NCBI GenBank assembly: GCA_030867685.1 | Contig: JAQOWU010000001.1 | Location: forward strand, 1-64,000 | DNA: 64,000 bases | From: Wickerhamiella versatilis | Taxonomy: Eukaryota | Direction of reading: 5' to 3' | Shown here: positions 3,691 through 53,388 of the stretch, in pieces | How positions within the stretch are numbered: the first letter of the stretch is position 1 | Layout: each line of letters opens with the position of its first letter | The notes under the pieces: model-generated | Told to the model about the DNA's origin: nothing | Database searches by the model: none | The model's input: only the letters and a program-made list of their open reading frames with translations | Translations under genes and position numbers: made by a program

Positions 3691-5559
3691 AGTCGAATAT
3701 CTGAATTTGCTGCAAACTCAAATACAGCACAGTCTGCGTGAACAGATGATACTAAGAATTGCCGTTTATATGAAAAAAATACTTGATCGATACCTTCTCA
3801 AAGTATTTAGCGAAACTCTTGAGATAGGTTACCAGATCTATTTTTCTTCTATTTGCAGTAGTTTCAAGGATTATTTGCCTGGTTTGGTTCCAGTAGCAAA
3901 TCAGATACCGCTCAAGAAAAAAGAATGATGAGAAGATACCCCCGCCTGTCGATAATCTGTCAGACATATCAGAGCTCGGGTGGATCCCAACTGTTGTATC
4001 TCTTCCTGCTTCGACAATTGTGGAAACTATTCACAATGAAAATCTATGTCACATGTATTCAGCAACTATTTACGATGCTTTTACAAAGTTTCCCTTACTC
4101 GTGATACTGCTCAGCCTGTCAAATTTTCTCATATTTTCACAGCAGTACTATGTATTGATGGTCTGACTAGGTTGAAATGGCAAATAAGATACCTCCTAAT
4201 TGCTGTGATGCTCAAAAAAAGATAAAAATAAGAGATATGTTGAATATCTCTGAGATACATCCAAAATCTTGAAAGAATCACTTCTGCCGTCCATCTTCAT
4301 GTTTCATGTTTTGACGACAATAATATGCCATTCACAAAGAAAGTCCTATACCACGTCAAAAACATTCCATGCGATTTTATTATGGTTTCCAATTCTCTTT
4401 TAAAGGATGAAAAAATACTTGTTGTCGAATATATCTAGGGAACAGACTGTTGTGATGCTATATATTCACAGATAGATCTCATGTCAAAAACTCAAAGTTG
4501 AAGAAAAGAACAGGAAAATATCAATCGCGAACCAAAAGAAAGCAAAAAAGAAGTAATATCAAAAGAAAAATCACCATAATTTTCGAAAAAACAATAAAAA
4601 AAAGAGAAAAAAATTGGCTATTTGGTTTTTTTGCCGGCTCAAATCCATCCAGCCCTACATGCAAAACCAGAAGCTGTAACAATGAGGAGTGCTGTCTATA
4701 TGAAGGGAAGAAGCTTTAAAAATACCCTCTCAATGTTCTCCGAATGAATTTTGAGGTTCCCGCAGACCAAATTCTCCTTTATTCACAGAGGTCTTATGTA
4801 TCATTTGACTGATGTGGTTGAAATGGCAATATATTCAAGATAAAATGCAAAAACAAATTAAACAAGCAAGAGATCTGCCCTTGACTGTCTTTCAAATCAT
4901 GAAATTTTTGAATGAATCCGTCTGTCGTATTTCGTCACACCATTTTTGGTGTCTGCTCAGAATTTAATATGAAATTATTCCGATACAAAACTATCTCTTC
5001 GTAACTCCAAAGTGAAGGATTGTGCTAGAACTCAATGTTCAAGCAGTGTTGTAACATAATGTTTACTTCCAACTGCTCATAATGTTCAAGTTAAGTTCTG
5101 GTAAGTCCTTTCTTCTTCTTTAGAAAGAGAGAGGCTATGAATTCTTCTGTCCTATGGTAGAATATCAGGATTCTGTGCTTATAAGACATTAGGAGAGCCT
5201 AATGTGTGCTCTCTTCATCAAGTGAAATTTTACAGATTGTCTGCTTGGACTCACCTGATGCCAATGTCTTGCATATGGGCTTCCATTTTTGAGAAGAGAG
5301 CTTATAGGGTATTTGTATTGGAAAAAGTTTTCTTTTCTGAGTACCAGTACAACACCAGATTGCAGATAGCCACCGCAATTTCAATCCAAAAAATCTAAGA
5401 AAGCACGGAAAAATTTCGATATAAAAACGAAATTCAATTTCGATGCGGAGTTAAATGGATAATGGAAAGAAATTGGCTGTCTCACGTATACCTTCTATCT
5501 CAAGTTACGAATTCGTATCGAGAAAGACCTGGTTAGTAAGAGAACCACATTCGTTGACC

Positions 5560-6720
5560 ATGACGCGTGCATTTAGCGCACCAGGGAAAGCATTACTTGT
5601 AGGGGGATACCTTGTACTCTTTCCAGAATACTCTGGATACTCTGTGGCACTCTCAAGCAGAATGCATGCTGTTGTAGAGTCGTGTGATTCTGAGGAGCTA
5701 ATTATTTCGAGCCCTCAATTTGATTCGCGGTGGACCTACAGCCTAAGCCAGTATACTTGTGTTTCTGGTACACACAAGAACCCATTTCTGGATGCTGTGG
5801 TTAGCAGTATTGGTACTTATTTTGGAGGCGCACTTAAACCTGGACGCATAGAGATCTATTCTGATGCTGGCTTCCACTCACAAAAGTATGCACATAATGG
5901 CCAGCTGCCTCAGTTCTCGTACCATTCAAGGCAAATCACCGAAGTCCCGAAGACTGGACTAGGGTCCTCTGCTGCCTTGTGCACTGTAGTTACTAGAGCT
6001 TTGGTCTCGCTACAAGACCCGCTAGAGAGCGATTTGCAAAAGATTCATAACTTGTCTCAAATAGCACATTGCCATGCACAAGGTAAAGTTGGAAGTGGAT
6101 TCGATGTGGCAACTGCGGTTTTTGGTTCAATCAATTATTCGCGATTTGACCCTAAGTGTATACCCGCGCAAAATGACGTAGACTCTTTGAGAGCTAGTGT
6201 AAACACACACTGGCATATGCTCGCTGATACAGTCTCCCCACCCGAGTCAATTGCCTTCGTTTTCGGTGATATCTCTGGAGGTTCGGAGACCCCAGGAATG
6301 GTAAAAAAGGTTTTGTCCTGGAAAGATGCCAACCCTGAGACGTCCTTAAAGTTATTCAATCTTCTCCAGCAAGCTAATTCCTCGTTTATGCATCTTTTAA
6401 AAACACAGGCTCATCCTGACGAAATTAAAAGAGCTCTGGATAAGGTCCGAGCTCTTCTGCGCAGTTTAACGCAGGACACTGGTGTACCCATTGAGCCTTT
6501 AGAGCAGACAAAATTATTGGACGCTGCATGTAATGTCGAAGGCGTGATAAATGGAGTAGTTCCCGGGGCTGGCGGGAACGACGCTGTTTGCTTAATAGTA
6601 GAAGCACCGCATTTACAAAAGGTACTAAACATGCTAGAATCCATTCCAAACGTATCATGGTCTGTTGAGCATCCCTCAAAGGGACTCCAAGAGGAGGACC
6701 CGGGGCTTTACCGTGTGTAA
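5560..6720 (+). CDS. ERG8: Phosphomevalonate kinase (GHMP family)
   Basis: Motifs AFSAPGKALLVGGY, KTGLGSSAA, AQGKVGSGFDVA and GVVPGAGGNDA. Start placed at ATG 5560 (MTRAFSAPGK), not the ORF-track 5455. Confidence 0.95.
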   Translation: MTRAFSAPGKALLVGGYLVLFPEYSGYSVALSSRMHAVVESCDSEELIISSPQFDSRWTYSLSQYTCVSGTHKNPFLDAVVSSIGTYFGGALKPGRIEIYSDAGFHSQKYAHNGQLPQFSYHSRQITEVPKTGLGSSAALCTVVTRALVSLQDPLESDLQKIHNLSQIAHCHAQGKVGSGFDVATAVFGSINYSRFDPKCIPAQNDVDSLRASVNTHWHMLADTVSPPESIAFVFGDISGGSETPGMVKKVLSWKDANPETSLKLFNLLQQANSSFMHLLKTQAHPDEIKRALDKVRALLRSLTQDTGVPIEPLEQTKLLDAACNVEGVINGVVPGAGGNDAVCLIVEAPHLQKVLNMLESIPNVSWSVEHPSKGLQEEDPGLYRV

Positions 6721-6808
6721 CTGGGAACCATAATGAAACTCAGAAAGAAGCGAAGTGCTATACTGCAATTCTAGCTGTAATACTAGTCATTGTTTAAATA
6801 ATTAATTT

Positions 6809-7318
6809 TTAATTGAGTGAGGATGCAACGCCTCTGGCATTGGTTGTAAACAGGGTAGAAAAATAAAGCTTGACATAACGTGAAATATCACCAACAACAC
6901 CTGGTCTTGGTGTGGTCAATTTAACCTTTTTCTTGGAATCTTTCTGCACAGGAGGAGTTCCACCAAGTCTGTGGCCAGAGTTACCGCCGAACTTTGGTGC
7001 AAGTGCACTCAATTTGCGAAGAGCAGCAGTGACCGCTATGACGTTGCCACCTTTTACACGATCAACTTCAACGCCGCGATGGAAGAATAAAAAGGTGGGC
7101 ATTGCAGTCACACCAAACTGGGATGCAATCTGTTGGTTCTCATCCACGTCAACATCTGCCATAGCCACATTTGGAAATGTTGTACTCATATGATCAACCG
7201 CAGGCTTTACAGCTTTGCAAGGACCACACCACTCAGCGCTGAATTTCAACATAACAAGTGGCTTTGATGCCAGTAGATGATCGCATTCTGCACTATCATG
7301 AATTGACGGTATTCCCAT
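6809..7318 (-). CDS. Thioredoxin (WCGPC) with C-terminal extension
   Basis: FSAEWCGPCK active site, AMPTFLFF cis-Pro motif, and a ~60 aa tail. Confidence 0.9.
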   Translation of the reverse strand: MGIPSIHDSAECDHLLASKPLVMLKFSAEWCGPCKAVKPAVDHMSTTFPNVAMADVDVDENQQIASQFGVTAMPTFLFFHRGVEVDRVKGGNVIAVTAALRKLSALAPKFGGNSGHRLGGTPPVQKDSKKKVKLTTPRPGVVGDISRYVKLYFSTLFTTNARGVASSLN

Positions 7319-7544
7319 ATTAGCTAGCAGTTTGGGGTTGGCAAGTGACTAAGAGGAATATTGTTCATATATCTATCTCAATAAGGAAATGTTTGAACCA
7401 AAAGTATATACCAAGTGTCAAATACTAAAAAATAATAAATTCATGAAAGTATCAACCTATAAAGTCTTCCAGCTAGTCACGTCTTTATCTTAAAGGGGTA
7501 GTTGTGTACGGCGGTTTCCTGTAATCAGTTCGCTTCGTCATTAG

Positions 7545-9254
7545 ATGGATACTTCTGCCGAGGCATCAGCACCTTCGTCTGACATGGCAGACGTGAAGGC
7601 GCAACCTGCTGCAAATTTTTCTGAAATGCCAGCTGGACAGGTTGAAGGGCCCACTGTTGATTCGGCACCCTCGGCGTCAACGGGATCAGAACCACAGCAT
7701 GCACCTGACGCGTTGAAGCATGAAGAGAGTGCGAAGGCACAAGCTTCAACCCCTGTTGAGGATACCAAACCGTCGGTAGATGCTACTAATTCAAATGGGG
7801 GGCATGCAAAGGCGAAGCCAGCGTCTGCAACATCCTCTTCATCCAAGAGACCTCATCATGCGCGTGTACGAAAACCCTCACAAAAGGCGGTTGAAGTGGC
7901 AGAGCAGCCAAAAGCACAAAAGCGAAAACGGAAGCCAGCGAAAATGGTGAAGCTTAAGTATTTCAATGCAGAGCCGATGCCAGAGTTTGAACCTATACAA
8001 TTTGAAGACGACGCCAGTCTCCAGGCATTTTGGATCCGTGTGGGTCTTCGTGAGTTTCTTTGGCGGTTTAACAAGCTTGTTCAGCCAGGTACCCGTCATT
8101 ACGCAACGATAAATGATCCGACACAGACTTGGTCTGATGTGCTATTCAAGACCGTAATTGCACAGCTGCTTCACGTCATTCTGAACGACCACTCACCAAT
8201 AGTCCCATTCACAAAACAATACTATCAAAACATACAGGCTTGCCAGCCCTCAAGTCCTGATATATGGACTCAGTTACTAGAGTTCTTACAACGTACTGAT
8301 CCCTACGTATACAAGTCCGAGCAACTCAAAGGAGAGCTGCAGCGGCTAGATTTGGTCAGGCGGCTTATGGTTTTGTGCACTGGTACTGAAACCATAAGAC
8401 TTACAGTCACCAGTGACGTGGATGAGCTGAAATTCGTCGTTTCGGGTAATAATGAAGAAATAAAGAAGCTGGAGAAGCACTGGAAAGAGACGCAGAAAAA
8501 GCTGCAATCACTGAAAAAAGTCGGGCCTGATGTCTATAAGGCAAAACTGGATGCGGCAAAGCTTCAATCCGACCAACGCATCTGGCGAGTACACCAGGAC
8601 ACATTTCAGAAGCAAAAAAAATACAACCTTCGTACCCAGCCCATTGGCGAAGATAATCTAGGAAATGTGTACTGGGCCTTACAACAAAAGTCTCGAGATA
8701 TGGCAGCATGGGGCTCGTGGATTGTGTGCGAAATGCGCTACGAGCCGGAAAGCCTGAAGTTCTTTACGGAAAAATTGCCCAAAGATGTTGATCATGTTCT
8801 AGAGTCTCGAGCTCAAGCGCCTCCCCGTAAAAAGAAAAAGCAAGCTGATGCCACAAACCAGCCCAAACAGGGGGAAACTGCTCAGGCTCCAAACAACAAT
8901 ATCAACAACAACGGCCACAACGGTGAGCAGCAAGCCACACCCACATCAGCACAACCAGGAAATGAGCATGAGGATCCAAAAGAGTCCACCCAAAGTTCGG
9001 GTCTTTCTGGACTGAAGGCTGAGTCCGAGGACAGCGTGCCGCCAGTGAAGCCAGGCTCCGAAAAGGCGTCCGATGAAGCACCAAAGAAACGCAGATATCC
9101 AAAACTCAAAATTGAAAAGCCAAAGGTGAATCCGCATCTATATTACGTTGCTGGTGGTGAAAATATCTCAAAACTGGCCAGCTGGATAGGTGGCCAGGGC
9201 TCCAAAGAACTCGCAGAGAAAATTGAACTTTTATCTGTGTATGTAGATGAATAG
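7545..9254 (+). CDS. Probable nuclear chromatin-associated protein with WHIM2/WSD-like motif
   Basis: 569 aa ORF with basic NLS-like runs (KRKRK, RKKKK). RTQPIGEDNLGNVYW resembles the WHIM2 LG.D..G..YW motif of ISWI-associated subunits. Function inferred. Confidence 0.55.
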   Translation: MDTSAEASAPSSDMADVKAQPAANFSEMPAGQVEGPTVDSAPSASTGSEPQHAPDALKHEESAKAQASTPVEDTKPSVDATNSNGGHAKAKPASATSSSSKRPHHARVRKPSQKAVEVAEQPKAQKRKRKPAKMVKLKYFNAEPMPEFEPIQFEDDASLQAFWIRVGLREFLWRFNKLVQPGTRHYATINDPTQTWSDVLFKTVIAQLLHVILNDHSPIVPFTKQYYQNIQACQPSSPDIWTQLLEFLQRTDPYVYKSEQLKGELQRLDLVRRLMVLCTGTETIRLTVTSDVDELKFVVSGNNEEIKKLEKHWKETQKKLQSLKKVGPDVYKAKLDAAKLQSDQRIWRVHQDTFQKQKKYNLRTQPIGEDNLGNVYWALQQKSRDMAAWGSWIVCEMRYEPESLKFFTEKLPKDVDHVLESRAQAPPRKKKKQADATNQPKQGETAQAPNNNINNNGHNGEQQATPTSAQPGNEHEDPKESTQSSGLSGLKAESEDSVPPVKPGSEKASDEAPKKRRYPKLKIEKPKVNPHLYYVAGGENISKLASWIGGQGSKELAEKIELLSVYVDE

Positions 9255-9301
9255 TGGTCAAAATTGAACTTAAACTACAGCTATAAATAGTTTTGCATTT
9301 C

Positions 9302-9841
9302 CTAGGCTTGTTCCTCCTTAGGTTTCTCCATTGGCGAGTCCTCAGCTTTGGCTTGTATTTCAACGCCTTCCTCTGAGTTACCATCCCCACCTAAAGACAG
9401 CATCCTCTGTCGCGACGAGCGAAACAGTTCCTCTTGCTCGCGCAACAATTCCTCTTCGGATCTCCCACTCTGTTCAAGCTTCCCTACCTTGCGATCGCGT
9501 TGCTTTAGACTGTCTTTATGGTCGGATATGACCTTCTGCACGGGTTCAACATAATCGGGAAAGCCTAGCTGCTGAAGAGCCTTTATAACATGCTCACTAG
9601 CAATAGTCTTTTTAGATTCTCGCTCAGCAATGTCATTAGATTCAGTGGAAAGAATCATGATAAACATGACACAGCATTCTATGAGAGCATCGCGAGATTC
9701 CCGCGAAAAGGCAAGATCTGGTGGTAGAATTTCTTGAATTATCTTTTGAACCGTCGCCTTCGGGAGGCTAAGTTCCTCCGCGCTCTGATCAGACATTAGT
9801 GTTAGTAAGCCTCAGGGAGCCGCTATACGCATGCATACCAT
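9302..9841 (-). CDS. NCB2: Negative cofactor 2 beta subunit (Dr1), probably spliced: ATG 9841-9839, intron 9838-9785
   Basis: Histone-fold sequence LSLPKATVQKII...KKTIASEHVIKAL. Minus strand reads ATG|GTATGC...TTACTAAC...CAG|AGC GCG GAG, which is in frame after splicing. Confidence 0.93.
9785..9838 (-). other. 54-nt spliceosomal intron in NCB2
   Basis: 5' splice site GTATGC directly after ATG, branch point TACTAAC (9807-9801), first downstream AG is CAG ending at 9785; the intron contains an in-frame TGA. Confidence 0.75.
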
Positions 9842-9935
9842 CCTTGAGAGAGAGAAACTGCTTCGAAACTTTACAGAAATGTCTAGGCAAACTACACATT
9901 CTGGTTTAAGAAAAGTCCTAAACTAATTAAGATAC

Positions 9936-11705
9936 CTAGTGATGGAACAGGCGGAAAGAGTTCTCCACATACACCAGCCCCTTCGCATCCGCTGCATCCA
10001 AAACTGCCTGATCCTGAACCGATCCAGTAGGAGCAAAAATGTACTTAACACCAGAGCGCTCAGCACGGTAAACGTTGTCGCTGAATGGGAAAAATGCGTC
10101 TGAAGATAGTGCTACGTTGTTGAGCTGGGAGATCCACTCGTCGCGCTCTTCAGCAGTGAGTGGTTCAGGAACTTCCTCAAACTTCGCCTCAAAGTCCTTA
10201 AGCTCTGGCCCCTCAGTAGGAACCTGGTTGGTGACATAAAGATCAATTGCATTAGACTTATCAGGACGCTTGGTGCCCTTGGCCCACTTGAAGCCCAAGA
10301 CCTTGGGATGGAACCTCAACCACCAGGCATTGGCCTTATCACCGGCAAGACGAGTACAGTGAATTCGCGATTGCTGGCCTGCTCCGAGTCCGATTGTCAT
10401 GCCGCCCTTCGCGAAGCATACTGAGTTCGACTGAGTGAATTTCAAGGCAATCGTAGCCACGGTAAGGTCGATGAGAGCCTGTTCAGGTAATTCTTTATTC
10501 TTTGACAGAATTTCCCGGAAAGAGGTAGCTGGGAAGAAAGCAGCATCATTTCTCTTCTCCTGAAGATCGATACCAAAAACAGTACGGGTCTCCAATGGCT
10601 GAGGCACATATGTGGGATCTATCTCTAGTACACAGTACTTCCCGCCTTTCTTCTTGCGCAGGATTTCCAACGCTTCTGGCTCATATCCCGGTGCAATCAC
10701 ACCATCGCTAACTTCCTTAGAGATAATTTTCGCCGTGGGCACGTCAACACGGTTGCTCAACCCGATAAAATCTCCGAAGCTCGACATGCGATCGGCACCA
10801 CGTGCGCGAACGTATGCGTTTGCCAAAGGAGAGTCGTCCCCAAGATCACCTGCAAAGTAAACTTTCTTCTCCTTCTCAGTTAGGGGCATCCCGACAGCTG
10901 CACCAGCTGGAGACACATGCTTGAAGGATGCAGCGGCAGGAAGTTCAAGCGCTGCACTAAGCTCCTTCACAAGCTGCCACGCATTAAGCCCATCAAGCAA
11001 ATTGATATAGCCTGGTGAGCCGCAAAGTGTCTTAAACGGAAGTTTTCCTCGAGGGATGAATGCCTGGGCAGGCCTCTGGTGAGGATTTTCACCGTAACGT
11101 AAGGGCTTCTGAGACACATCTTCCGCGTACTTCTTGCGGAAGAAGTCCGCGATTGTCGCATCATACTCTGCAGTAACCTCGAAAGCTTTCAAAGCAAGCT
11201 CATTGCGGAGATCTTGACGAATTCCCCCGTGAGCTCCGAGCTCCTCGATAAAGCGGTGGTAATCGTTGGGATCGCTGAGAATTGTGACACGGCTATGGTT
11301 CTTTGCCGCTGCACGAAGAAGGGTTACACCACCAATATCTATCTCTTCCACTGCCTCGTCCACGGTAACATTCACCTTTGAAACAGTGTCCTTGAAGGGG
11401 TACAGATTGCAAACAACGAAGTCCACCTTCTCAATACCTTGATCCATAAGGTCTGCATTGTCACTTTCGATGTTCCTGGCAAGAATACCAGCATGTACAG
11501 CAGGGTGCAAAGTCTTAACACGACCTCCAAGCATCTCGGGTGCATGGGTGATTTCCGAAACGTCATTAACTACAAACCCCGCTTCACGAATCATGCGTGC
11601 AGTACCACCTGATGCTAATATCCTTACATCGTTTTTAACAAGACCCTTGGCGAGGTCCAAGAGACCGGTCTTGTCGTGCACAGATATAATTGCCGTCCGC
11701 GCCAT
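9936..11705 (-). CDS. ADE17: Bifunctional AICAR transformylase / IMP cyclohydrolase (ADE16/ADE17)
   Basis: [42 protein letters not shown] and C-terminal RLFHH. Start at ATG 11705. Confidence 0.97.
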
Positions 11706-12059
11706 GACACAATTCACTTAGTAATCTTTTTTCTGATTAGAGAATTTAGGGAAAGTTGGTGCTAGGTGTTCACGGTCAAGAAGGGGCGACAAAATTCAGT
11801 TTACTAAAAAAGAGAATCACACTTTGTATAGCTTTTAAGATTTAACGATATAGCACTCATGCGCGACATAACCTTTGTTGCAATTAGGATTTAGAATGCT
11901 CGCACTGGTGAAGACAGTAAGTGACTCTGCAATATATATTTATATATTTATATTTATTCATTCAGAAAGCAATAGCTGCTTAGGTTGACATTGTAACTTC
12001 CCTATCAGTCTCAAGGGTATTAGTAATATATGCCAAAGTGATTTGACTAGTATATCATC

Positions 12060-12773
12060 ATGTCGGCTGATATCTCAAGGGCTCTAGGCCAATCTATTCT
12101 CGGTCTGAATCAGCAGCAGGGAGACTACAACCATGCTAGTGATAGTCATTTCAAGAAGTTGCGTGCGGAAGCTGAACGCGAACATGAGAAATATCAACAA
12201 TTAGCAGGCCAGTCCCATAGGGCATTCAATAATGGAGAAAAGGAAGAGGCTTCTGCTTTGAGTGAGCAATCAAAAAAGCATAAAGCTCGCGCAGATGATC
12301 TTAACCAACAAGCTGCGGCCTGGGTCTTTCGAGAAAACAATACCGACTCTGCTGCAGATGAGATCGATCTGCACGGCTTATTTGTCCGCGAAGCTCTTTC
12401 AGCACTAGACGCTCGTATTCAAGCTGGAATCCAGAGACGAGAAAGCATCCTGAAAGTCATTACAGGAAAGGGGATGCATTCTGCCCATCATATTGCAAAG
12501 CTCAGACCTGCAGTAGAGGACTATTGTAAAAAAAGCGGATTTCAATGGAGACTGCAACATAAAAACGAGGGTGTTGTGGAGATTAATCTTGCTTCTCCAG
12601 GAACAGCAGCTCCAAATGCCTACCAGGGTTATCAACAAGCACCAGGCAACCAAGGGTTCGGATATCAACATCAGCAACAGCACGGTGGTCAAAATAATAT
12701 TAATGTTAAAAAGATCGTGCGTTTCATTAGAGGATTTATGCGGGTGGTTAAGCTATTCAAACAATGTATGTAA
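12060..12773 (+). CDS. Smr-domain protein with DUF1771 (YPL199C-like)
   Basis: EIDLHGLFVREA, VITGKGMHS and NEGVVEI Smr motifs, preceded by a helical DUF1771-like region. Confidence 0.85.
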   Translation: MSADISRALGQSILGLNQQQGDYNHASDSHFKKLRAEAEREHEKYQQLAGQSHRAFNNGEKEEASALSEQSKKHKARADDLNQQAAAWVFRENNTDSAADEIDLHGLFVREALSALDARIQAGIQRRESILKVITGKGMHSAHHIAKLRPAVEDYCKKSGFQWRLQHKNEGVVEINLASPGTAAPNAYQGYQQAPGNQGFGYQHQQQHGGQNNINVKKIVRFIRGFMRVVKLFKQCM

Positions 12774-12780
12774 TTATTTT

Positions 12781-14304
12781 CTAATCTACTCTTTGCCATA
12801 TACCAATCTTTTCGTCAACTTTCACCAGTTCCTTCCAGCTAAGCTTCAAAAAGTTCAAAATCCCTGTTCCTTTCACTTCTTTTACGAATCCGATAGGATC
12901 TTTTTTAACCTTGCTGAAATATTCAAGCGGAAGTCGTCCATTAATTCCAAGGAATGCTGGTACGGTCTCGAGGGGCTTCCAGTTGCCGCCAAGTTCCGTG
13001 AGCTGCTTTTGACTTAGCTCTCCAATGTAATACGCAAATTTTGGCCATAACGCTAGTGTTGGGTTATCATCTTCACTGTGGTGGTAAATAGTAGCATTCC
13101 ATAGTTCCCCAAATCTTTGTGCGCCTGTCATAAACGAAAGTGTATCTATATGAATCCATTTTCCTGCAGCTTCATCTTCCTTCACACACTCATGAAATAC
13201 CCGCAGGGCATTACCACCCGGATAATTGAGTGCAGAGACCCAAGCCTTGATGAAAGATCTGAAAACCGCGAAAACAACCGCCGTGAATGCCCCAAGCTTG
13301 AGAAAGTTACGATACTTAGGGGCGCGTACTACTAGCCCTGCTGTCAAGGCCGTAAAGATCGGGGCAACATAAATGATAAAACGAAGCTCCTTGTGAGGGA
13401 GCACAGATAGTAACGCGATATAGCCCAGCGATGCCAGCAAAAGAGCACGAAGTGGCACGGGGGCATAATCGAATCCAAAAAGAGAGGTTGCTGATATGAA
13501 TTGTGAACTGAGGATGTTAGGCAAGTGCCTTGTGAAGTAGGTATGCCATGGCTCAACTCCCCAGTTAGATGCCTTTCCGTCTAATACATTGAAAATGAAA
13601 GCCTCGAGCTCAGGAAGTACAGGTCTACCCCAGAAAAATGAATCAACGGCAAAACTAAGCAATGCACCCGTAGCAAGGCCGAAAAATCCCCAAGTGATAA
13701 TGGGTTTCAGGCTTAGTTGATCCGTTAGCAGGAGTGAAAATGCTAAAGGTCCACCGAGTGCAGCTAGTTCCAGCCGAAATACAATACAAGTGAATGCCAG
13801 CAGAGCTATCGCCGATCTAGGCCGTCTCGATAGAACCCTAGTAAACGACTCAATTACGAGCGGCAACGCGAACATATTCGGCAAAAGTCGACTAGCATAC
13901 CACATTAAATGAAATTGACCTAACGTGAGCATCATGAACCACTTGCCCACTAGTTCTCCATTTCCACGTTTCCCGTACGCATCAGCAAGCGTATGTCGAA
14001 ATCGGGTTATGGCAGTCATATTGAGCGCACCTACTACCCCTCTTGCTACCAATTCTCCATGAGAAAGGGGTAACTTCATAAGATAAAGGTAAGGCTTGAC
14101 AAGTGCGGCTAGAAATATACTTCCAACGAATGTTCGCGGGACCACACATGGATGTTCCGTATTATCATATGATGCGAAGTCAAGACCAAATTTTATTATA
14201 TCATGAGTAGCTTGTGTGTTAAAACTCTCCTCGATCTTGCTATACGGAGCAATAATCAAATAGTAGGCACCCAATAGCTGGAGTATTATGTCGAGGCCAT
14301 CCAT
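12781..14304 (-). CDS. ALG12: Dol-P-Man alpha-1,6-mannosyltransferase (GT22)
   Basis: PYSKIEESFNTQATHD, VVPRTF, YASRLLPNMFALP, PHKELRFIIY, NYPGG; multiple transmembrane segments. Confidence 0.93.
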   Translation of the reverse strand: MDGLDIILQLLGAYYLIIAPYSKIEESFNTQATHDIIKFGLDFASYDNTEHPCVVPRTFVGSIFLAALVKPYLYLMKLPLSHGELVARGVVGALNMTAITRFRHTLADAYGKRGNGELVGKWFMMLTLGQFHLMWYASRLLPNMFALPLVIESFTRVLSRRPRSAIALLAFTCIVFRLELAALGGPLAFSLLLTDQLSLKPIITWGFFGLATGALLSFAVDSFFWGRPVLPELEAFIFNVLDGKASNWGVEPWHTYFTRHLPNILSSQFISATSLFGFDYAPVPLRALLLASLGYIALLSVLPHKELRFIIYVAPIFTALTAGLVVRAPKYRNFLKLGAFTAVVFAVFRSFIKAWVSALNYPGGNALRVFHECVKEDEAAGKWIHIDTLSFMTGAQRFGELWNATIYHHSEDDNPTLALWPKFAYYIGELSQKQLTELGGNWKPLETVPAFLGINGRLPLEYFSKVKKDPIGFVKEVKGTGILNFLKLSWKELVKVDEKIGIWQRVD

Positions 14305-14718
14305 GCTGACTCATTACAAGTGATACGGGTTTTATGCGTCAATGGTGATAAACTCACTATAAAAGAAGATTTTCTATGTCAATAGCTAAAGGAAGACTAA
14401 ATCTCCTGTGTTTGGTTTTCTAATAATTTCTCATACTGTTGCAAATACGTCTCTGTAATGCTAAGTTGATGACACGGAGATTGGGGGGCTCAGCGCAATG
14501 CCAATTTTTGAGTGTCATAGGATCTCTTCAAATGATTCAATATAAAATAAAACCTACCTTCTTACCAGGATATAAAGCTGGTAACGGTCCTCCTTCCAAA
14601 GAAGCGCCAGTAATATTATCAAATCAATATTTGTGTGTTAGTCATTAGGGCTTGTGCCCACCATCTTTCAGACTCACTCCCTACCTCACGCTGGTTCAGC
14701 TGGTAGTTACACTGTATC

Positions 14719-15330
14719 ATGGGTGCCTACAAATACCTTGAAGAGCTTGCCCGTAACAAGCAGAGCGATGTCCTTCGCTTCTTGCAGCGTGTCCGCTGCT
14801 GGGAGTACCGTCAGTTGAACGTTATTCACAGGGCTTCCCGTCCATCCCGCCCGGATAAGGCACGTCGTCTCGGCTACAAGGCCAAGCAGGGCTATGTGAT
14901 CTACCGCGTTCGTGTGCGTCGTGGTGGTCGTAAGCGTCATGCTCCTAAGGGTGTTACCTACGGTAAGCCCACTAACCAGGGTATTAACCAGCTTAAGTAC
15001 CAGCGCCAGCTCCGGGCCACTGCCGAGGACCGTGTCGGCCGCCGTTGCCCTAACTTGCGTGTACTGAATTCTTACTGGGTGAACCAGGACTCCACATACA
15101 AGTACTTCGAGATCATCTTGGTTGACCCCCAGCACAAGGCTATCCGCCGTGATGCTCGTATCAACTGGATTGCCAACCCTGTCCACAAGCACCGTGAGGC
15201 TCGCTCGCTCACTGCTGTTGGCAAGAAGTCGCGTGGTATCAACAAGGGCCACCGTTTCAACAACACCAAATCTGGCCGTCGCCACATATGGAAGAAGCAC
15301 AACACCCTGTCCCTCTGGCGTTACCGCTAA
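14719..15330 (+). CDS. RPL15: 60S ribosomal protein eL15, intronless
   Basis: [10 protein letters not shown]...[25 protein letters not shown]...LSLWRYR; strongly biased codon usage. Confidence 0.99.
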
Positions 15331-15535
15331 GCGCAATAAGCGTTTACTCTAACCGACTCATGAGTATAATCATTAGTGTTGCTCCACTAAGCCTCTGTCT
15401 GTTATAGCAAGATGATTATTAGCTAGGACATAAAATTTTTTAAATAAAGACTACAGAAGAACTGTCTGAATTAAATGGCTTAAGTACTTCTAAGAAACTA
15501 GATTTGCGCTGCCACGGCCATAACTAGTGTTTCTC

Positions 15536-17323
15536 TCAAGAAGCGAACAAGTCATCCCATGTTATATTCTTTCTGACAGCGTTTGAGAATCCTTCGGAAT
15601 AGGAAACCCATATATGGCTTGCTTGACGCCTAACTTGACCCTTGGATTGTCCGAAGAATGTCAATGGAGCGCGTTTGGGAGCTACGGGTGGCTTTGGTGG
15701 AGAAGCTTGTGTAGCTTCAATTTGAGATAGATTACCACCAGGTGTACGTTGATTAATTCTCGAAAGAGCCTCCTTAAGATGGTGACGAACAGAAAATTTC
15801 CACGTCGATAACAATCGCTGAGTTGATACATCAAATGCACAAGTCTCCTCTAAGGGAGGATCCATTCTGTACACAGATGCACCAGTGTCAAGTATCTCCA
15901 TGCGAAAGCGAATTCCTGTTTCGATAAGTGAAGCAGCACAAGAGGCCAGCCGTCGATGATTTTCAGGTGATAGTATAGCATTAGGTTGGCAAGGACAGGC
16001 AAGCCTCACAACATAAGGCAGTAGTTCTGTTATGGCTCGTCGAATCCCCAGTCGTTTAACATCTGATGAGGATCTGTTTAGTGCCTTTTCCGCGATATCC
16101 TTGGCACTCTCTATAAGATATGGCGGGACAGGAAGGTGGACGAATTCATTTGTGGTGGAGCGGCAATGCCATCCAAATGCTCTTGCACAAGTAACGTTAA
16201 GATCCTCACTCGCTACTGTCCGCCTTCCCAAGTCGGCAAGCCCTAGCCATTCACTTAACTCACAGGATTTCTCAAATGAGTCGTCCATAAAATAGGCATG
16301 GATATATTGTGTGAAAAGGCCGCTAATAAGACGGTCCTGTTCGCATGCATAAAGTTCCGAGTCTGTTACTGGGTGGCCGCTGAACAGTCTTCGAGCCAAT
16401 TCTGCCCAGCCACATGCATTAGATCTTTTTCCACTTTGGGAACCCAATTCAAGAGAATTAAGACAAGCTCGAAGGTCACCATGGCACATGGCGATCACAT
16501 CATTTATCTGCGAGCTTGTAAGTTTAAGGTTTTCAAGTTCTGATAATTCCTCTAGTAGAGACTCTAGCAGGCGAGAGGAATGTCGGGGATAAGATACCAG
16601 CTCAGAGACCTGTCGCAAATCATAAAGCTGTTTCGTAAAAGCCTCATTTGCGATTGCTATTATAGGTCTTCCCGGGGCTTGCTTCTTTTTCTTGGGATTG
16701 TTTTTCCGTTTCGAGGCTGAAACTAATGATACCAGAGTCCTCACAAACCGGCCATCACAGCCATCAATGTCATCTGCGACCATACATGCGGGTCGACGCG
16801 ATGCTGTACTTTGATGGTTATAGAGGCCCTGCATTCTGTCGGAGATCACTTGTCTCTCGTCACTGGCATTCACTTCCAGCACATCGAAACCAGCTTGCCG
16901 AACCATAACGTGCACCGCAGTGGTCTTTCCCGATCCAGAGGGACCATGTACCAATAAAATTCGTTTCTCCGGAGGAGTTCCATGCCGCCAGGCAGTTAGC
17001 CAACGCATGATTCTTCTGTGAACATCATCAGACCCTACCAAATCGACAAATCGCTGAGGTTTATATTTTTCCGTTAGGAGAAGTCTTCGAGTTTTTGCCG
17101 CGGGCATGGAGCTACGAGTTTGGGGAGATCTAACACGCTTCAATAAATCATATATGGGAATGCCAAAATCATTATCTTGACTTTCTTGAAAAGTACGTTT
17201 TTGGCGCCGGGGCAGGTTCTGCTCCGACGTCTCCGTTGCTTCGTCAATGCTATAGAAATCAAATGAGTCCTCCTTATTTCCAACATCAGATTGAGCAGAA
17301 CTGCCCTGAAATAGAATGCTCAT
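15536..17323 (-). CDS. CTF18: Alternative RFC clamp-loader large subunit
   Basis: EKYKPQRFVDLVG, Walker A GPSGSGKTT, EVNASDER, GDLRACLN and C-terminal SYSEGFSNAVRKNITWDDL. First ATG is 17323. Confidence 0.93.
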   Translation of the reverse strand: MSILFQGSSAQSDVGNKEDSFDFYSIDEATETSEQNLPRRQKRTFQESQDNDFGIPIYDLLKRVRSPQTRSSMPAAKTRRLLLTEKYKPQRFVDLVGSDDVHRRIMRWLTAWRHGTPPEKRILLVHGPSGSGKTTAVHVMVRQAGFDVLEVNASDERQVISDRMQGLYNHQSTASRRPACMVADDIDGCDGRFVRTLVSLVSASKRKNNPKKKKQAPGRPIIAIANEAFTKQLYDLRQVSELVSYPRHSSRLLESLLEELSELENLKLTSSQINDVIAMCHGDLRACLNSLELGSQSGKRSNACGWAELARRLFSGHPVTDSELYACEQDRLISGLFTQYIHAYFMDDSFEKSCELSEWLGLADLGRRTVASEDLNVTCARAFGWHCRSTTNEFVHLPVPPYLIESAKDIAEKALNRSSSDVKRLGIRRAITELLPYVVRLACPCQPNAILSPENHRRLASCAASLIETGIRFRMEILDTGASVYRMDPPLEETCAFDVSTQRLLSTWKFSVRHHLKEALSRINQRTPGGNLSQIEATQASPPKPPVAPKRAPLTFFGQSKGQVRRQASHIWVSYSEGFSNAVRKNITWDDLFAS

Positions 17324-17681
17324 TTCCCACGCGTCGCGTCCCAAACAATTTCTTACTAACTATAATCAGGGTCTTCTTGTACGCTCGTAATTGTAAATAT
17401 TATCTTGCTATCTTCTCTAATTTTATTTTGCGACGCTAAAGCAATGGAAATTGCACCTGCGTTCATTATTCTTTTATCAATGTTCTAAATGCTTTGTTAT
17501 TTTTTTGGTCCACGTTGCTGAATAGCGAGTAATAAATGACAATTAATATATATAAATTATTTCAGAGTTATACTCGCATCATATTTTCTTTTTTCTGATT
17601 CCACTGATCTTTAGCATTATCAGGAAGGAAGCCCGTTCATTATATTGTTATATAAGGTGTGTTATTCATCAAAGCTCAGCA

Positions 17682-18551
17682 ATGCTTCCGGAGAAAGTAA
17701 CGGTGGCGCCGTTGGTTCTGCTGTCGGTTTTAGATCACTACAATCGCATGGCGACAGATTCAAGTCGTCGTGTTGTAGGTGTTATCTTAGGAGATGTTCG
17801 AAATGGGGTTGTTCGCGTATCCAATAGCTTCGCTGTCCCTTTTGAGGAAGATACAAAACAAGCGGATGTGTGGTTCCTAGACCATAACTACATCGAGGGA
17901 ATGCAAGAGATGTTCAAGAAGGTAAATGCCCGTGAAAAGCTGATTGGTTGGTACCATTCAGGCCCCCGCCTGCGCGCACAAGATCTTCAAATCAATGAGC
18001 TGTTTAAGCGATACACCCCGAATCCTCTACTTCTCATTGTAGACGTTCGTCCGAAAGACGTAGGAATTCCTACTGATGCCTACTTTGCCATCGATGAAAT
18101 CAAGGCAGATGGTACAAGTGCAGAAAGAACTTTTGTGCACGTTCCGTCAGAAATCAAGGCCGAGGATGCTGAGGAAATAGGCGTCGAGCATCTTTTGCGC
18201 GATGTTCGTGATGCTGCAGCTGGCACGCTGGCCACACGTATTGCCAAACAGTTGGGCTCACTGCAGGGCTTGGACGGTCGGCTCCGCGATATCGGTCACT
18301 ACCTTGACAGGGTTCTCGCTGGTGAACTGCCAGTAAACCACACCATTCTTGGAGAACTTCAGGATGTATTCAACTTGCTTCCGAATCTATCAGCAGCGCA
18401 GTCACCAGATCTTGCGAAAGCCTTTACAACAAAGACTAACGACCAGCTTATGGTAGTTTATTTGTCTTCAATTGTTCGTGCCATTATTGCATTCCACAAT
18501 ATGATCGAGAACAAAATTCAGAATAAGAAAGCCCTGGTGGTCGAAGCCTAG
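17682..18551 (+). CDS. RPN8: 26S proteasome lid subunit (MPN domain)
   Basis: [47 protein letters not shown]. Confidence 0.97.
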
Positions 18552-18765
18552 CGCGGGCGCTCTATTTGACCTTTTTGAGCGGTTTTACTGATTCTAAAGT
18601 ATTGTTGAGCCTTCTGTCTAAAAAAATCATAAGATCAAGAAATATAATGCATATTGTGCAAGGAATATAGTTTCATTTAGTCACAGGAGGTAAATAAAAT
18701 AATGATACACAAAAAATTAGCGGCCTTTCAAGCATGCGTAGTAGTTGAGCAAGTCCGCAATTTTT

Positions 18766-20391
18766 TTACTCAAAGAATGGTGTGACTTGTCCCAACCCAG
18801 GAGACAAAACCTGTGCTGCAGTTCCCAAACTTGCTGTAAGTGGCGTTGGGGGTGGTGGGAGGTGTGGCTGAGCTGATGGTCTACAACTAGACTGTTCAAG
18901 CAGTGCCGGGATTTCCTTCGCAACTCGAGCCAATGCAGATACCTCTGGGCCCAAATTTGGATCATTCAATAGAGGAACATGTGGGACAGACGACTTAATA
19001 GCACCCAATATCGCAATTATGGCCTTCAGAAACGATTGTGTCTCATCCCACAGTCGTGAAGGAGCTTTAGACGAAAGCACAAGCCGTAGCTTCTTGGTGG
19101 CTGCAACACCATTCAGGCATACAGTACTCAGCTCACGTATTTTAGCAGTAGATGCTTCCGAAGGGACTTTAGCCGCCCCTTCTGTCGAAGCAAGGGACGT
19201 CGCAGATGCTGTAGCCGTTGCAGAGTTAGCGATCACATCATTAAGAAGGGAGAGAACTCTCTGTGCAGATTTTACTGCAAAATCAAGTTGCGTTAGCAAC
19301 ATGCCGTCCTGACTGGACGACGCTGTTGCTGGTGTGAATGGAGTCGTTGCTGATGCTGATGCTGGTGAAGTTAAATTTTGGGACCACGAATTTTGAAGTT
19401 CTGCCCATGCTGGCATCAAACTGGTAACAAAAATTCGAAGTGCTCTCCGATTCTCTGACTTACAGAGGCGGGCGAGAGCGTCAGGCGCGGCCAGCGCGCC
19501 AATCACACCAGCTAGTCCAGCAGCTGGTGCACCGGCCAGATTAACGTGCGACCATGCAGCAGTTACACGAGGTGGAAATGCATCGCAGCTCTTAAAAATC
19601 TGCTCCAAGGCCGATCTTGTCATTTCAATGCCTATACTAGTCGATGAAATTTGAGAAATAGACGAAGATGTGGAAGCAGGTCCTGAGGGTAATGTGGTCA
19701 TGGGAGTAGAAGGTTGTGTGCTAATATAAGCCTGTGAAGACTCCCGAGAAATTCCTGGTTGAGGCTTTTCTAGCATGGGTAAGTCCACGGCCGCATCCCG
19801 ACTCAGAGCTCTGGAGTGTAGCATGTCGGCATAGGGTATATTCCGCTGAACCACAAATCCCATTCGTTTCGCCTGTTTTGATAGCCCACTTTCACTCTCA
19901 GAACGATGGCGCAAAGGTGGAGGACCGTCCAGTGACGGCCGCCGCAGCCATGCTTGAACCTTTGGAACCCACTCCTCATCGTTGGGATTCAACTGCGGTG
20001 GAAGCACAATCGGGTTTTCATTTATTTCCAAATGTACAAGATTGGGCAACGCAGCAATCACGGGAGGCAGATGGGTTAGCTGGTTTCCCGAGAGACATAA
20101 AACCTTGAGATTGCGTAGCTTTATTAGTTCTGGTGGCAAGCTCTTCAGCATATTGTGACTTAAATCCAGAATTTCGATTGAGTTACATTCCGTCACTGCG
20201 GCTGGAAACTCTGTGAACCGATTATTGGCGATGTTCAGGTAGTAAAGACGCTTAAGCGTTCCAAACAGATTCGGTAGTGTGCTCAAATGATTACTTTTGA
20301 GACTCACTTTTGGCGCATTTTGCATACTCTCAACTAAATTCTGAGAGAGCTCCTTTAAGGCTTGGCCCTCCAAAATCACCGCCCCTTCCAT
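18766..20391 (-). CDS. SOG2: Leucine-rich-repeat RAM network protein
   Basis: N-terminal LRRs (LxxLxLxxN), SKQAKRMGFVV and HSRALSRD motifs, helical C-terminal domain. Confidence 0.8.
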   Translation of the reverse strand: MEGAVILEGQALKELSQNLVESMQNAPKVSLKSNHLSTLPNLFGTLKRLYYLNIANNRFTEFPAAVTECNSIEILDLSHNMLKSLPPELIKLRNLKVLCLSGNQLTHLPPVIAALPNLVHLEINENPIVLPPQLNPNDEEWVPKVQAWLRRPSLDGPPPLRHRSESESGLSKQAKRMGFVVQRNIPYADMLHSRALSRDAAVDLPMLEKPQPGISRESSQAYISTQPSTPMTTLPSGPASTSSSISQISSTSIGIEMTRSALEQIFKSCDAFPPRVTAAWSHVNLAGAPAAGLAGVIGALAAPDALARLCKSENRRALRIFVTSLMPAWAELQNSWSQNLTSPASASATTPFTPATASSSQDGMLLTQLDFAVKSAQRVLSLLNDVIANSATATASATSLASTEGAAKVPSEASTAKIRELSTVCLNGVAATKKLRLVLSSKAPSRLWDETQSFLKAIIAILGAIKSSVPHVPLLNDPNLGPEVSALARVAKEIPALLEQSSCRPSAQPHLPPPPTPLTASLGTAAQVLSPGLGQVTPFFE

Positions 20392-20581
20392 GGGCAATAG
20401 TGATTAGTCACCTACGATTGTGTTTAGTTCGCTATAGTTTAATAGGATTCCTATATCAGTTTCGAATTCTTTGTGAGGAGAAAATGCGCTCAACCCAGTC
20501 TATTAACGTTGCAAATCGATCTTACTTATGCATAACAGATTGTTGGCGAAAAAGTCTGTCTCGTTAGGTAATCTCGTATCA

Positions 20582-21961: not shown

Positions 21962-22007
21962 ATTATTGAAACTTATTAACATTTATATACTAAACTATCG
22001 AACATTG

Positions 22008-22973: not shown

Positions 22974-23041
22974 GATACCGTTACAATCTTGTCCTAGTAA
23001 GAGGCCCTCAAGGGTGACTAAGGGCTTCGACTGGCATTTCT

Positions 23042-28076: not shown

Positions 28077-28226
28077 GCGCCGCAGATACTGACTAACAGA
28101 GGCGACGCGAGAATGATCATAAGATGAACGGATAAAAAGCATTGAAATATGCCAAGCCAAAATTGGCTTTCCCGCTGCACTGGTAGGAAGAGATTATTAC
28201 AGAAAGAGATACCCTCAGCCCGCCAA

Positions 28227-36865: not shown

Positions 36866-37191
36866 GTTGATGGTGTGTCAGCACGAGGCGGACAAAATGT
36901 AAACAACCAAGAAATCATAGTATTCAGCTAGGCACGAGGTGGCAAATGAGCTTGCTTGTAACAAAAAAATCTACGTTATATAGCACTATAGTCATTAAAA
37001 TCCGCGAAATGCTGCTTAAGGTCTCTAAAAAAAATCCGAATTGCAAGACCCCCCATTTACGTTTAGAATCCACATAAAGCCGTAACATAGAGCTTTATAA
37101 AATAACTTCCTCGTAAATTAGTTCTACTGAATAAATAGAACCCGGTCTTCCCATTAATTCTGACTCATCGGTAGCCAGGTCTTGGAGCTGC

Positions 37192-41491: not shown

Positions 41492-42402
41492 TGTTACTAA
41501 GTCTCCAGACTGGGGCGGTCACGGTATATATAAAGTCGTAATTGGCGGAGCTCTATTATATAAGCAACGTCTATTGCATGGGCTAGGGTTAATTATCTTG
41601 TTAGAAGCGAAGTCGGAGATTCAATCGCCTTCGAGGGCCTCTCCATGCATATTTTGCAACAGGGTATGCCCACGCTATAGTAGGCAGAACTCCAAGCCGG
41701 GATACTTTAGGCTCTTTTGAGCCACGAAAAAAACGCTTCAATGAGCGCCATTTACTCGCTCTTATGGTTGGAAGCTCGTTACGGACGAGCAAAGTCATGG
41801 CGTGGGCGCTGGCCTCTGGGACCCCTTTTTGCGGGGTTCCGCATTACCCTAACCTCTGATGTTTTTGGGGTAACAATTCCATTGGAAAGGAAATTCCTGC
41901 GTAATGATCCCATTATGAGAAGCTATTCTGAATCATCTTTTTGCTTGGAATTGCTTGGAATTGCTCGGTGAGTGGCGTGCTCGTAGTTGTCTCACCGTTG
42001 TCGCGTTGATGGGCATGCATAAGTGGCTTGGGGCCGGTCGGTCGGTCCGTCGATCGACAAATAACTGAACTAGGGGGTAAACGCCTAGTGCGATATTGTA
42101 TATACAGGCTATCAGGAATAGTTATTGTGTAACTAGGATATATTTCGTGAAGTACATGTAGATCATACTGTATAAGCGGCTTAGATATTGATTTCGTCAG
42201 ACTTTGATTAGACATCAAGGGAATAAAGCTTGTCACTAGCATCGGACAGCACCACGCCATATAGATACCATCAGAAATTTAAATTAGCACAACAATTCGC
42301 TCTTTCAGCCATCTTGTCCTGGTCTGTCCTGGTTTCTACTTTGTGGTAATCAAGCTTGGGCTTCATTATATAACAAACTGGGCAAGGTTATATTTTTTTT
42401 TG

Positions 42403-44783: not shown

Positions 44784-44801
44784 GGTAAATAGTTTAATTT
44801 T

Positions 44802-45125: not shown

Positions 45126-45483
45126 CTCTATATTTTTAGTAAGGCAGTGGTGGTGGACTGGCTCTATATGGTGGAAAGCACATGAATACGACATTAGCAC
45201 TTTTAAAAGTTTTAAATAAATGCTCTGTAGGTATCTTTCAATTAGTTTAACTTCACCTTGAAGGCCACTGGTGAGGAAACCAGCACCACTTTTATGTAGT
45301 TTGAATATTAAGGAAATACTGACTTCGTCCAGTTCAATGAGCTTCCCAAAACCCAGTATTAGAATTGCGATATATTTTGATTGTAGATATTCACGCACAA
45401 TCGGTTCATTTGTGCCCCAATTGAAAGCACATGCGGCGATCCCTACTATGCAGAAACCTTTAATCAGCACATCTGTCAACGAG

Positions 45484-47898: not shown

Positions 47899-48052
47899 TA
47901 CTAATTTTTGTATCTTTACCTGTTCAGATTCCTATTCAAATTTCTGTCTTCGTACTCGTACCTTATATTGTATCTATCATGATCGTAGGTCGTAATAATT
48001 TTAAAGGTGATTGATTGACTGAGTGAATCGTTGGTTAGTAATATAATATGTC

Positions 48053-50969: not shown

Positions 50970-50989
50970 TATAAGTATAAAAAGCATTG

Positions 50990-52390: not shown

Positions 52391-53388
52391 TGATTATTCT
52401 TGATTAGTAACCACAAACGCATTAAATGCGACGGGTGAACTATGTAAATTAGCAACGATAACGAAGAATTAGGTTTCAGGCTACTTTATCCATATTTTAC
52501 GGGACTTTCCGTCCTGCTGAATGGTTTTTGGCCGCACATGTAGTATAAAAAATCTCTTTTTGTAGGGTGGCCCTAGCCCTCTCCACATTGTGATTCTTAC
52601 TCTTGTCGGTGATGCATTACATGCAGAGTAGCAGTAGATTTGGTCACACAGTGTATGTAAACGAGCAAATGGTAAGATGTTAATAGTACAGAGTGTCATA
52701 TTACAGCCATTTGAAGTCCCAGCTATCCATCTAATCCCGGTAATTCATCAGATGGTGAAGTTATAGAACGCAGTCTATAGATGTATTTTCATCAACCGGA
52801 ACACGAATAAAGCCTCTGTAAAGTGAACGCAATAAAATACAATACTGCCTGACTTCTCGGGAAATAAATCATTTGACGTATGAAGAGGGGAAGGATGTTC
52901 TTCCGGTAGGGACGGTAGTGGAGCCAATACCCAGGATAAAAGGGTCGGTCGTCGTGTATGCAGTGATGAAAAAGCTTCTCGAATTAGCCTACCACATAAT
53001 CTCGCGCATAGAAATAATATATTTGTGGGTCAGCGCCGTCTGATCTAGCAATTAGACGAACCAGCGAATGTTTAGTGAAAGACGCACAGCCGATTACTCT
53101 AAAACCATATATCATCCATATCACTAAAAGTGAACTACTAACCTTAGGGATCCAGAGGTTGCGGGGCCGCACGGCCACTCTGATCTATTCATATTTACCC
53201 AGCCAAGAATCACCTCTTCCTATAGAGGAAGACTGCAGAATTGCGAAATCGGTCCCAATACTAAAGCTTGGTATAATTTATAACCTACGATGGTTCCTCA
53301 AGCAACCGGTCTGTACATGATACCTTGCCAAACCCTTTCATGACTCCAATTACCTTGATGAGATATATGGGCAAGGTTTTGAAGAAGT

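Follow-up and report, generated by a model that had tools for sequence, protein, structure and literature searches.

The window analysed here is a 64,000-nucleotide (nt) stretch of the yeast Wickerhamiella versatilis, bases 1–64000 of contig JAQOWU010000001.1 (C1) in an assembly of 9.88 Mb and eight contigs (GCA_030867685.1). The genome has a GC content of 44–45%, and its genes are tightly packed and mainly without introns. Among the 38 genes of the window are an ERG8-like gene and the genes for thioredoxin, ADE17, RPL15, KTI12, MTG1, ACH1 and MOD5. The subject of this report is a heptamer, T(T/G)A(C/G)T(A/C)A (TKASTMA), which stands directly before the start codon in many of these unrelated genes and whose variants include known sites of Yap and Gcn4 proteins of the bZIP family.

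The heptamer in the window and in the genome

An exact TKASTMA ends 0–40 nt before the ATG in 15 of the 38 window genes (Table 1), compared with a mean of 1.3 genes and a maximum of 6 in 2000 dinucleotide shuffles of the same 47-nt zones. All 14 sites named in a preliminary description of the window proved to lie where it had put them, each at the reported distance from an ATG; the fifteenth, before an NCB2-like gene, was absent from that list. The whole window contains 25 exact copies, fewer than in shuffled sequence (36.4 ± 6.4), so what distinguishes the motif is its positional concentration and not its abundance. The ERG8, MTE1 and RBL2 sites need the choice of a downstream ATG, and a first-ATG rule gives 12 of 38; Pfam domain starts agree with the downstream ATG for MTE1 and RBL2. 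Another TTACTAA, at 63916–63922, is followed by an ATG 5 nt on, and its gene may run off the window.

Table 1. Heptamer sites and mapped mRNA 5′ ends in the window (words are given on the sense strand of the gene)
Feature	Position	Strand	Context
TTAGTAA, ERG8-like	5533..5539	+	20 nt before ATG 5560; ORF extends up to ATG 5455
TTAGTCA, thioredoxin	7346..7352	-	27 nt before ATG 7318; -13..-7 from mapped 5′ end
TTACTAA, NCB2-like	9802..9808	-	5 nt before ATG 9796
TTACTAA, ADE17	11718..11724	-	12 nt before ATG 11705; spans mapped 5′ end, -5..+2
Second exact site, ADE17/Smr divergent gap	11801..11807		about 85 nt upstream of ADE17 start
TTAGTAA, Smr-domain gene	12020..12026	+	33 nt before ATG 12060
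TGAGTCA, ALG12-like	14307..14313	-	2 nt before ATG 14304
TTAGTAA, CTF18-like	17353..17359	-	29 nt before ATG 17323
TGACTAA, SOG2	20404..20410	-	12 nt before ATG 20391
TGACTAA, KTI12/MTG1 divergent 68-nt gap	23015..23021	+	KTI12 ATG 20 nt and MTG1 ATG 41 nt away; -14..-8 from mapped KTI12 5′ end
TTAGTCA, MTE1-like	28090..28096	-	13 nt before ATG 28076
TGACTCA, TPS3-like	37161..37167	+	24 nt before ATG 37192
TTAGTAA, ACH1	41494..41500	-	2 nt before ATG 41491
TTACTAA, RBL2	45136..45142	-	10 nt before ATG 45125
TTAGTAA, MOD5	48035..48041	+	11 nt before ATG 48053
TTACTAA, CUB1-like	52404..52410	-	13 nt before ATG 52390
Thioredoxin mRNA 5′ end	7339	-	C/A step; leader 21 nt; 77 + 57 junction reads, two runs
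ADE17 mRNA 5′ end	11719	-	T/A step; leader 14 nt; 81 + 118 junction reads
KTI12 mRNA 5′ end	23029..23030	+	35 junction reads, one run; one-base G ambiguity; leader 12–13 nt
RPL15 mRNA 5′ ends	14709, 14711, 14714, 14716	+	leaders 3–10 nt

The motif had been chosen after the fact, so we fixed it, the zone (0–40 nt before the ATG) and the controls before any held-out data were seen. The held-out sample consists of 100 spaced 10-kb stretches (L001–L100) outside the window, about 10% of the genome, with the second half of contig C7 and the small contigs left out. Its 513 genes are mechanical calls, i.e., non-nested open reading frames (ORFs) that begin with ATG, have at least 150 codons and carry 320 nt of flank. 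The exact motif occupies the zone in 77 of them (15%), an excess of about 4.5-fold: the zone behind stop codons has it in 13 of 513 genes, and 100 shuffles average 16.9 ± 4.0 and never exceed 27. Shuffles in the window, and shuffles and 3′-end controls in the held-out sample, thus exclude chance, and the ATG-proximal peak that had been expected genome-wide is borne out.

The Yap-type signal at gene starts is real and genome-wide, and it is less frequent than the window suggests. The window's 39% is significantly above the held-out 15% (Fisher p = 4e-4) and represents the upper tail, helped by hand-picked ATGs. The genome-wide rate of the exact motif is about 15%, not the 37% (14 of 38) first reported. 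Intergenic density is 4.1 sites per kb at 0–20 nt from the ATG, 3.5 at 20–40 nt, 1.6–2.5 at 40–100 nt and at most 1.1 beyond. A codon-bias proxy for expression has a marginal link to the motif (p = 0.047 for exact matches, 0.16 for the matrix described below).

Orientation is free: the held-out sites divide into 85 forward and 82 reverse, with all eight variants seen on the sense strand, so the mixture of orientations seen earlier in the window holds in the larger sample. Sharing of sites by divergent genes was rejected as its source, as the motif is no rarer among tandem genes (39 of 215) than among divergent ones (35 of 272; p = 0.13, matrix p = 1.0). Divergent pairs with only 32–68 nt between their ATGs (window 22973–23042; L037, L092, L033, L032) often contain one motif or half-site, and some called divergent gaps measure merely 8–23 nt. 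The words GAGTTAC/AGTTACC are also enriched at 0–47 nt (8 versus 0) and are perhaps a second proximal element.

Median gaps between genes are small (260 nt tandem, 370 nt divergent), and an MCB word, ACGCGT at window 17329–17334, lies 5 nt before the CTF18 ATG. Both would be expected if compaction had squeezed ordinary regulons towards the ATG, with several bZIP proteins (Yap1, HapX, Gcn4 and ATF/CRE types) each serving its own gene set through similar-looking sites and no general factor involved, an explanation that we consider rather unlikely. Against it, the proximal motif is still present in 14 of 119 genes (12%) with gaps of more than 600 nt. Moreover, CCAAT, CACGTG, GATA and STRE words peak at 40–100 nt before the ATG and not at 0–40 nt.

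Identity of the site and its avoidance in coding DNA

De novo counts in the proximal zone put CTGAC, GCTGAC and its reverse GTCAGC, GCTTAC and TTAGTAA on top, and most of the leading 7-mers are bZIP half-site words. Expectation maximisation from three seeds gave a single strong half-site, TG(C/A)T(G/T)AC, joined to a second half that is less strictly defined, in both orientations. This half-site matches the extended flanks of the Maf element (MARE, TGCTGAC(G)TCAGCA) and of the 13-bp Yap8 element (PMC7261193). Unlike those elements, the sites here usually have one extended half, and no Maf- or Yap8-type protein was identified here. One other candidate, CAGTCACA, the Homol-D word of S. pombe, was set aside (0 found, 0.8 expected).

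Published Yap response elements, described for S. cerevisiae Yap1–7, Cap1 and Pap1, include YRE-O TTACTAA, the SV40 ARE TGACTAA, T(T/G)ACAAA and YRE-A TTACGTAA (PMC6545440), and the same words occur 0–40 nt before ATGs here in either orientation. Compared with shuffled sequence, this zone has 23 copies of TTACTAA (5.7 expected), 23 of TGACTAA/TTAGTCA (4.5), 15 of each of the two T(T/G)ACAAA words (4.7 and 5.7), and 6 of the 8-bp TTACGTAA (0.3); the 8-bp TGACGTAA is also among the Yap-type words enriched upstream of ATGs. The original assignment to Yap words agrees with the published elements, and the heptamer combines at least two signals, a general one of Yap type and a smaller one of Gcn4 type. 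The enrichment of both 7-bp and 8-bp cores, in a genome where profile searches find about ten bZIP ORFs, would also suit squeezed regulons of several bZIP proteins.

A two-fold cross-validated matrix, in which each half of the stretches was scored with a model built from the other, extends the signal beyond exact matches. At score 7 it detects 173 of 513 genes versus 11% in shuffled sequence (an excess of 25%), and at score 5 it detects 322 of 513 versus 36% (an excess of 42%); these excesses may be diluted because some starts are wrongly called. The best explanation of the words, judged by sequence, is a double-stranded DNA site of the Yap (fungal AP-1) bZIP type, to which such a protein is predicted to bind.

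The Yap-type words are purged from genes. In 717 kb of held-out ORF interior, TTACTAA/TTAGTAA is the most depleted of 8192 ranked 7-mer pairs (9 observed, 74 expected from synonymous shuffling) and TGACTAA/TTAGTCA is second (7 observed, 52 expected); their sum, 16 versus 126, is an eight-fold depletion, and the next pair has a ratio of 0.26. Both strands are depleted, and ranks 1 and 2 are kept under frame-aware Markov models of order 3 and order 5. Motif–ATG gaps occur in all three frames (27, 20 and 32), which, together with a depletion that survives synonymous shuffling and Markov models, leads us to reject a stop-codon or codon-bias artefact. Depletion is mild for TGACTCA (0.62) and TGAGTAA (0.69). 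Other words depleted in ORFs, with ratios of 0.26–0.49, are TTAATAA, TAATCTA, CGCGCGC and CACGTGA.

Seven of the 16 leftover ORF sites lie within 190 nt of a called ATG, and five of these seven have an in-frame ATG 25–34 nt downstream (background 22%); part of the leftover set thus probably belongs to promoters of wrongly called genes. Whole-genome counts fit the depletion when each word is compared with its reverse, a crude control (921 TGACTAA versus 1239; 959 TTACTAA versus 1928). As an outgroup control we used six metagenome loci of other budding yeasts that link RPL15 to ADE17; their 42 kb of ORF contain 10 sites where 11.7 are expected, and a proximal site preceded 2 of 32 genes (1.1 expected). 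This small control suggests that both the coding purge and the proximal pattern are lineage-specific. A metagenome scan for relatives yielded no contig on which the window's genes keep their local order. In a published panel, Yarrowia lipolytica has the lowest nucleosome score for TGACTAA (-0.35) and for TTACTAA (-0.53), but also for the same-composition control TAATCTA (-0.61), so that it is at most a possible precedent (PMC2897762).

The purge bears on what the site may do. If one site alone can seed initiation, we propose, copies inside genes would be selected against. An eight-fold purge that is absent in other yeasts is hard to square with the stress-only binding of squeezed regulons. A bound protein acting as a roadblock would likewise be purged from both coding strands, a point to which we return below.

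Transcription starts, TATA and target genes

Four RNA runs, representing at most three samples from two studies, were mapped to window 5201–24000, and most reads are at least 99% identical to the window sequence. Loose read ends in two runs carry an adaptor that we take to be a template-switch oligo; on that basis, the places where it joins the reads are RNA 5′ ends. Among the best 24 of 186 loose-end rows, such ends were mapped for four genes (Table 1). All seven positions are pyrimidine–purine steps, with leaders of 3–21 nt.

In the three mapped motif genes, "just before the ATG" means at or just upstream of the transcription start. The preliminary description had placed the site at or just downstream of the start; it lies upstream of or across it in all three, and outside the mRNA in two. 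Spacing is alike in two of the genes and different in the third (n = 3), and base composition around 167 aligned sites gave no clear fixed start offset beyond the motif flanks. The label "initiator" claimed too much for an element that works in either orientation and at varying distances from the start.

These starts also bear on whether the element is read by the basal machinery itself, or by an unrelated lineage-specific protein, and resembles Yap sites by chance. The ADE17 5′ end does fall inside the site, and reverse-orientation sites often have TCA or GCA next, as an initiator-like element might. The other two mapped starts are outside the site, and an Initiator-type core element has a fixed orientation, which the 85-to-82 split does not show. 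It is bZIP sites that typically combine free orientation with extended half-sites and with pseudo-palindromic cores of 7 and 8 bp, and we hold this explanation to be very improbable.

An RNA-level role is harder still to credit. Sense CTGAC resembles the fungal branch-point consensus and is the top 5-mer of the zone (72 versus 21 expected), so the sites could in principle be intron branch points or leader signals. Four RNA runs contain no splice joint supported by at least three reads in the 18.8 kb covered, and for the nine proximal sites there this disposes of a branch-point role, in agreement with the earlier view that these are not branch points of 5′ leader introns. Of 16 sense T(T/G)ACTAA sites, only 1 combines an upstream donor-like word with a YAG before the ATG, and reverse words are equally enriched at 6–7 letters; as noted, two of the three mapped sites are outside the mRNA. 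RNA reads and the donor/YAG check together largely refute branch points, and we give this idea almost no credence.

A stronger rival is a barrier or start delimiter, in which a bound bZIP stops incoming RNA polymerase II (Pol II) and suppresses upstream starts, so that very small promoters are protected and trimmed, while recruiting no machinery. Two of three mapped 5′ ends are just downstream of the site, tandem genes are slightly ahead of divergent ones in motif frequency, and in human cells bound factors repress starts upstream of themselves (PMC11269187). The tandem difference is, however, not significant. Site density is 1.28 per kb in tandem gaps, 1.35 in divergent and 0.43 in convergent gaps, although a barrier would help in convergent gaps too, and sites also occur in divergent pairs with 32–34 nt between ATGs, where no transcript comes in. 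A barrier role is accordingly improbable.

TATAWAW is commonest 31–50 nt before held-out ATGs. In Y. lipolytica, initiation occurs about 30 nt after TATA (PMC7849388), and the position here fits a similar distance by analogy. TATA and the motif tend to avoid one another: of the 77 genes with the motif, 2 have TATA, and of the 436 without it, 44 (p = 0.03).

The targets are diverse. We searched all 77 held-out motif genes against Pfam (first 500 residues, E at most 1e-15); 19 have no family, and the others have unrelated core functions. Their families include a Pol II subunit, Ssl1 (TFIIH), Med6 (Mediator), Snf5, Not3, eIF4E and eIF5, as well as Sec62, ribophorin, Rpn1 (proteasome), ARPC4, small GTPases, exportins and tRNA synthetases. 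The view of the window targets as unrelated housekeeping genes thus extends to the held-out set. No stress, redox or metal theme was evident by eye among the Pfam results for the 77 genes, and the lack of a visible functional theme in the Yap-type majority speaks against squeezed regulons.

The Gcn4-type minority does fit that explanation. Amino-acid biosynthesis accounts for 5 of 17 held-out TGA(C/G)TCA genes versus 0–1 of 60 others (p = 0.0003–0.002; classes were assigned after the Pfam names had been seen). In L001, L004, L035, L078 and L082, TGACTCA or TGAGTCA lies 7–33 nt before the ATG of an amino-acid biosynthesis gene, often followed by TC. This agrees with the known Gcn4 element TGACTCA in the genes that it marks; unlike that element, the subset here is close to the ATG, and it is a minority of the signal with only mild ORF depletion (0.6).

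A candidate promoter-seeding element

The observed basis for a general role consists of position, free orientation, the coding purge, diverse TATA-poor targets and three 5′ ends that fall in the site or 7–8 nt past it. Our preferred reading is that Yap-type sites are a general promoter-seeding element in about 25–42% of genes, mostly TATA-less housekeeping genes whose leaders measure from a few to some 20 nt; we give it a probability of roughly 0.55, with the binder and the function as its predicted parts. In this proposal, a constitutively nuclear Yap-family dimer would bind the site, keep a very short stretch open and bring in the Pol II machinery. Pol II would then start at a pyrimidine–purine step in or just after the site, and the factor would be displaced from the initiation footprint or tolerated inside it. 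The original suggestion of a bZIP protein as a general promoter factor at housekeeping genes is thereby partly supported, with binding and a need for the site in transcription as predictions.

Several points weigh against a general promoter-seeding role. Most held-out genes (85%) have no exact heptamer, and highly expressed RPL15 has none within 40 nt (the nearest is at 14638–14644). Just three motif genes have a mapped 5′ end, with spacing that is not fixed. The TATA anti-correlation is weak (p = 0.03 for exact motifs, 0.12 at matrix score 7 and 0.013 at score 8). MCB (5 of 19) and PACE (4 of 11) also lean to 0–20 nt, in small counts, which means that sites in this genome in part lie near the ATG as a general rule. 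The TGACTCA subset is an ordinary Gcn4-type amino-acid regulon. Finally, there is a steric difficulty, as a protein bound at -14..+2 would occupy DNA that Pol II itself covers during initiation. In human promoters, activator sites are scarce between -40 and +40 and may act as repressors in that interval, YY1 being an exception (PMC11269187).

Profile searches offer candidates for the binder. A bZIP with a PAP1 domain (Yap1-type) is encoded on contig C7, and an ORF with Hap4L and a weak bZIP match (HapX type) on C8, both identified by profile only. One weak bZIP match in the sampled stretches (E = 0.13) has no recognisable basic region by eye. A second Hap4L motif, at C8:1383109–1383156 on the minus strand, lies in a 344-codon frame with no bZIP profile match and is possibly a Hap4 orthologue. 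Yap1 orthologues are normally kept out of the nucleus until stress (PMC6545440), so a constitutive role would more likely fall to another Yap-family member. The signature of Yap basic regions is Gln and Phe/Tyr where Gcn4 has Ala239 and Ser242 (PMC6545440).

Known Yaps act from upstream activating positions. Sites here differ in that, in the three mapped genes, they are not upstream activating sequences; they stand where unrelated housekeeping genes start, and ORFs are purged of them. The regulons under the control of known Yaps are those for stress and metals (PMC6545440).

The closest working analogy is Drosophila M1BP, whose Motif 1 lies less than 50 nt from the start of many housekeeping promoters and which recruits the basal machinery (PMC5737516). 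M1BP is a zinc-finger protein that works via TRF2, with a proven function and an unrelated sequence. One could go further and regard a Yap-type bZIP as a general initiation factor, the fungal counterpart of M1BP, that acts on the start itself or some 10 nt before it, replaces TATA, sets the start in both directions and allows promoters of a few tens of bases. We offer this only tentatively, as a possibility with the odds against it. If true, it would allow single-site two-way promoters and quick promoter gain by bacterially derived genes.

Yeast general regulatory factors (Reb1, Abf1, Cbf1, Rsc3/30) have lineage-specific repertoires and abundant promoter sites (PMC2897762; PMC7849388), and the sites here are likewise frequent in unrelated, mostly TATA-less promoters. 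The sites of those factors differ by mapping to TATA-like positions upstream of the start. Microsporidian CCC/GGG-like signals resemble ours in a compact genome, leaders of less than 7 nt and a signal right before the ATG (PMC2803860); they are not a palindromic factor site, and the lineage is unrelated.

The words themselves are known; their placement at start sites and the scale of their use are not described in the literature searched (subscription journals and bioRxiv supplements were outside the search). Eight core-promoter motifs are reported as common to at least three of 12 yeasts, and in that account none is AP-1- or Yap-like, from a panel without a Wickerhamiella/Starmerella yeast (PMC7849388). 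PMC10985990 does not mention Yap, AP-1, Wickerhamiella or Starmerella. How the initiation complex is placed at TATA-less yeast promoters is described as an open question (PMC7849388). The general factors described so far in yeast work from upstream of the core promoter, and a stress-regulator family at housekeeping start sites would be a new promoter architecture in fungi. In this yeast group, the site would help to find true start codons and to design very short synthetic promoters.

Several minor observations were made along the way. Stretch L015 (C1, from 800001) contains at 1186–5496 a bacterial-type enterobactin cluster, entF end-entC-entE-entA-entH, in which entE and entA pass curated cut-offs and entF, entC and entH are best matches below them. 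A bacterial-type ent cluster has been described for the Wickerhamiella/Starmerella clade (10.1101/399394). The exact motif lies 15 nt before the entC ATG and 38 nt before that of entA, and entE and entH have none; these motifs could mean that the genes gained promoters once transferred, or that a HapX-type factor regulates them by iron. In L055, a gene with a Timeless domain has an MCB word (ACGCGT, near 330) 2 nt before its ATG, so that, as at CTF18, a cell-cycle site keeps close to the start codon. The leaders of RPL15 raise the question of how its first AUG is recognised at such very high expression.

The contig end (window 1–4000) has AT-rich repeat blocks and short low-complexity ORFs, and TGACTCA at 224 and 702 falls inside two copies of the contig-end repeat. 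OXP1 (57559–61322) is in two frames with a break near 58920, and the CHO1 ORF (56746–57423) seems to stop early; each is a possible assembly indel. RNA reads show one-base insertions at homopolymer-like places elsewhere, e.g., 15472 and 18760.

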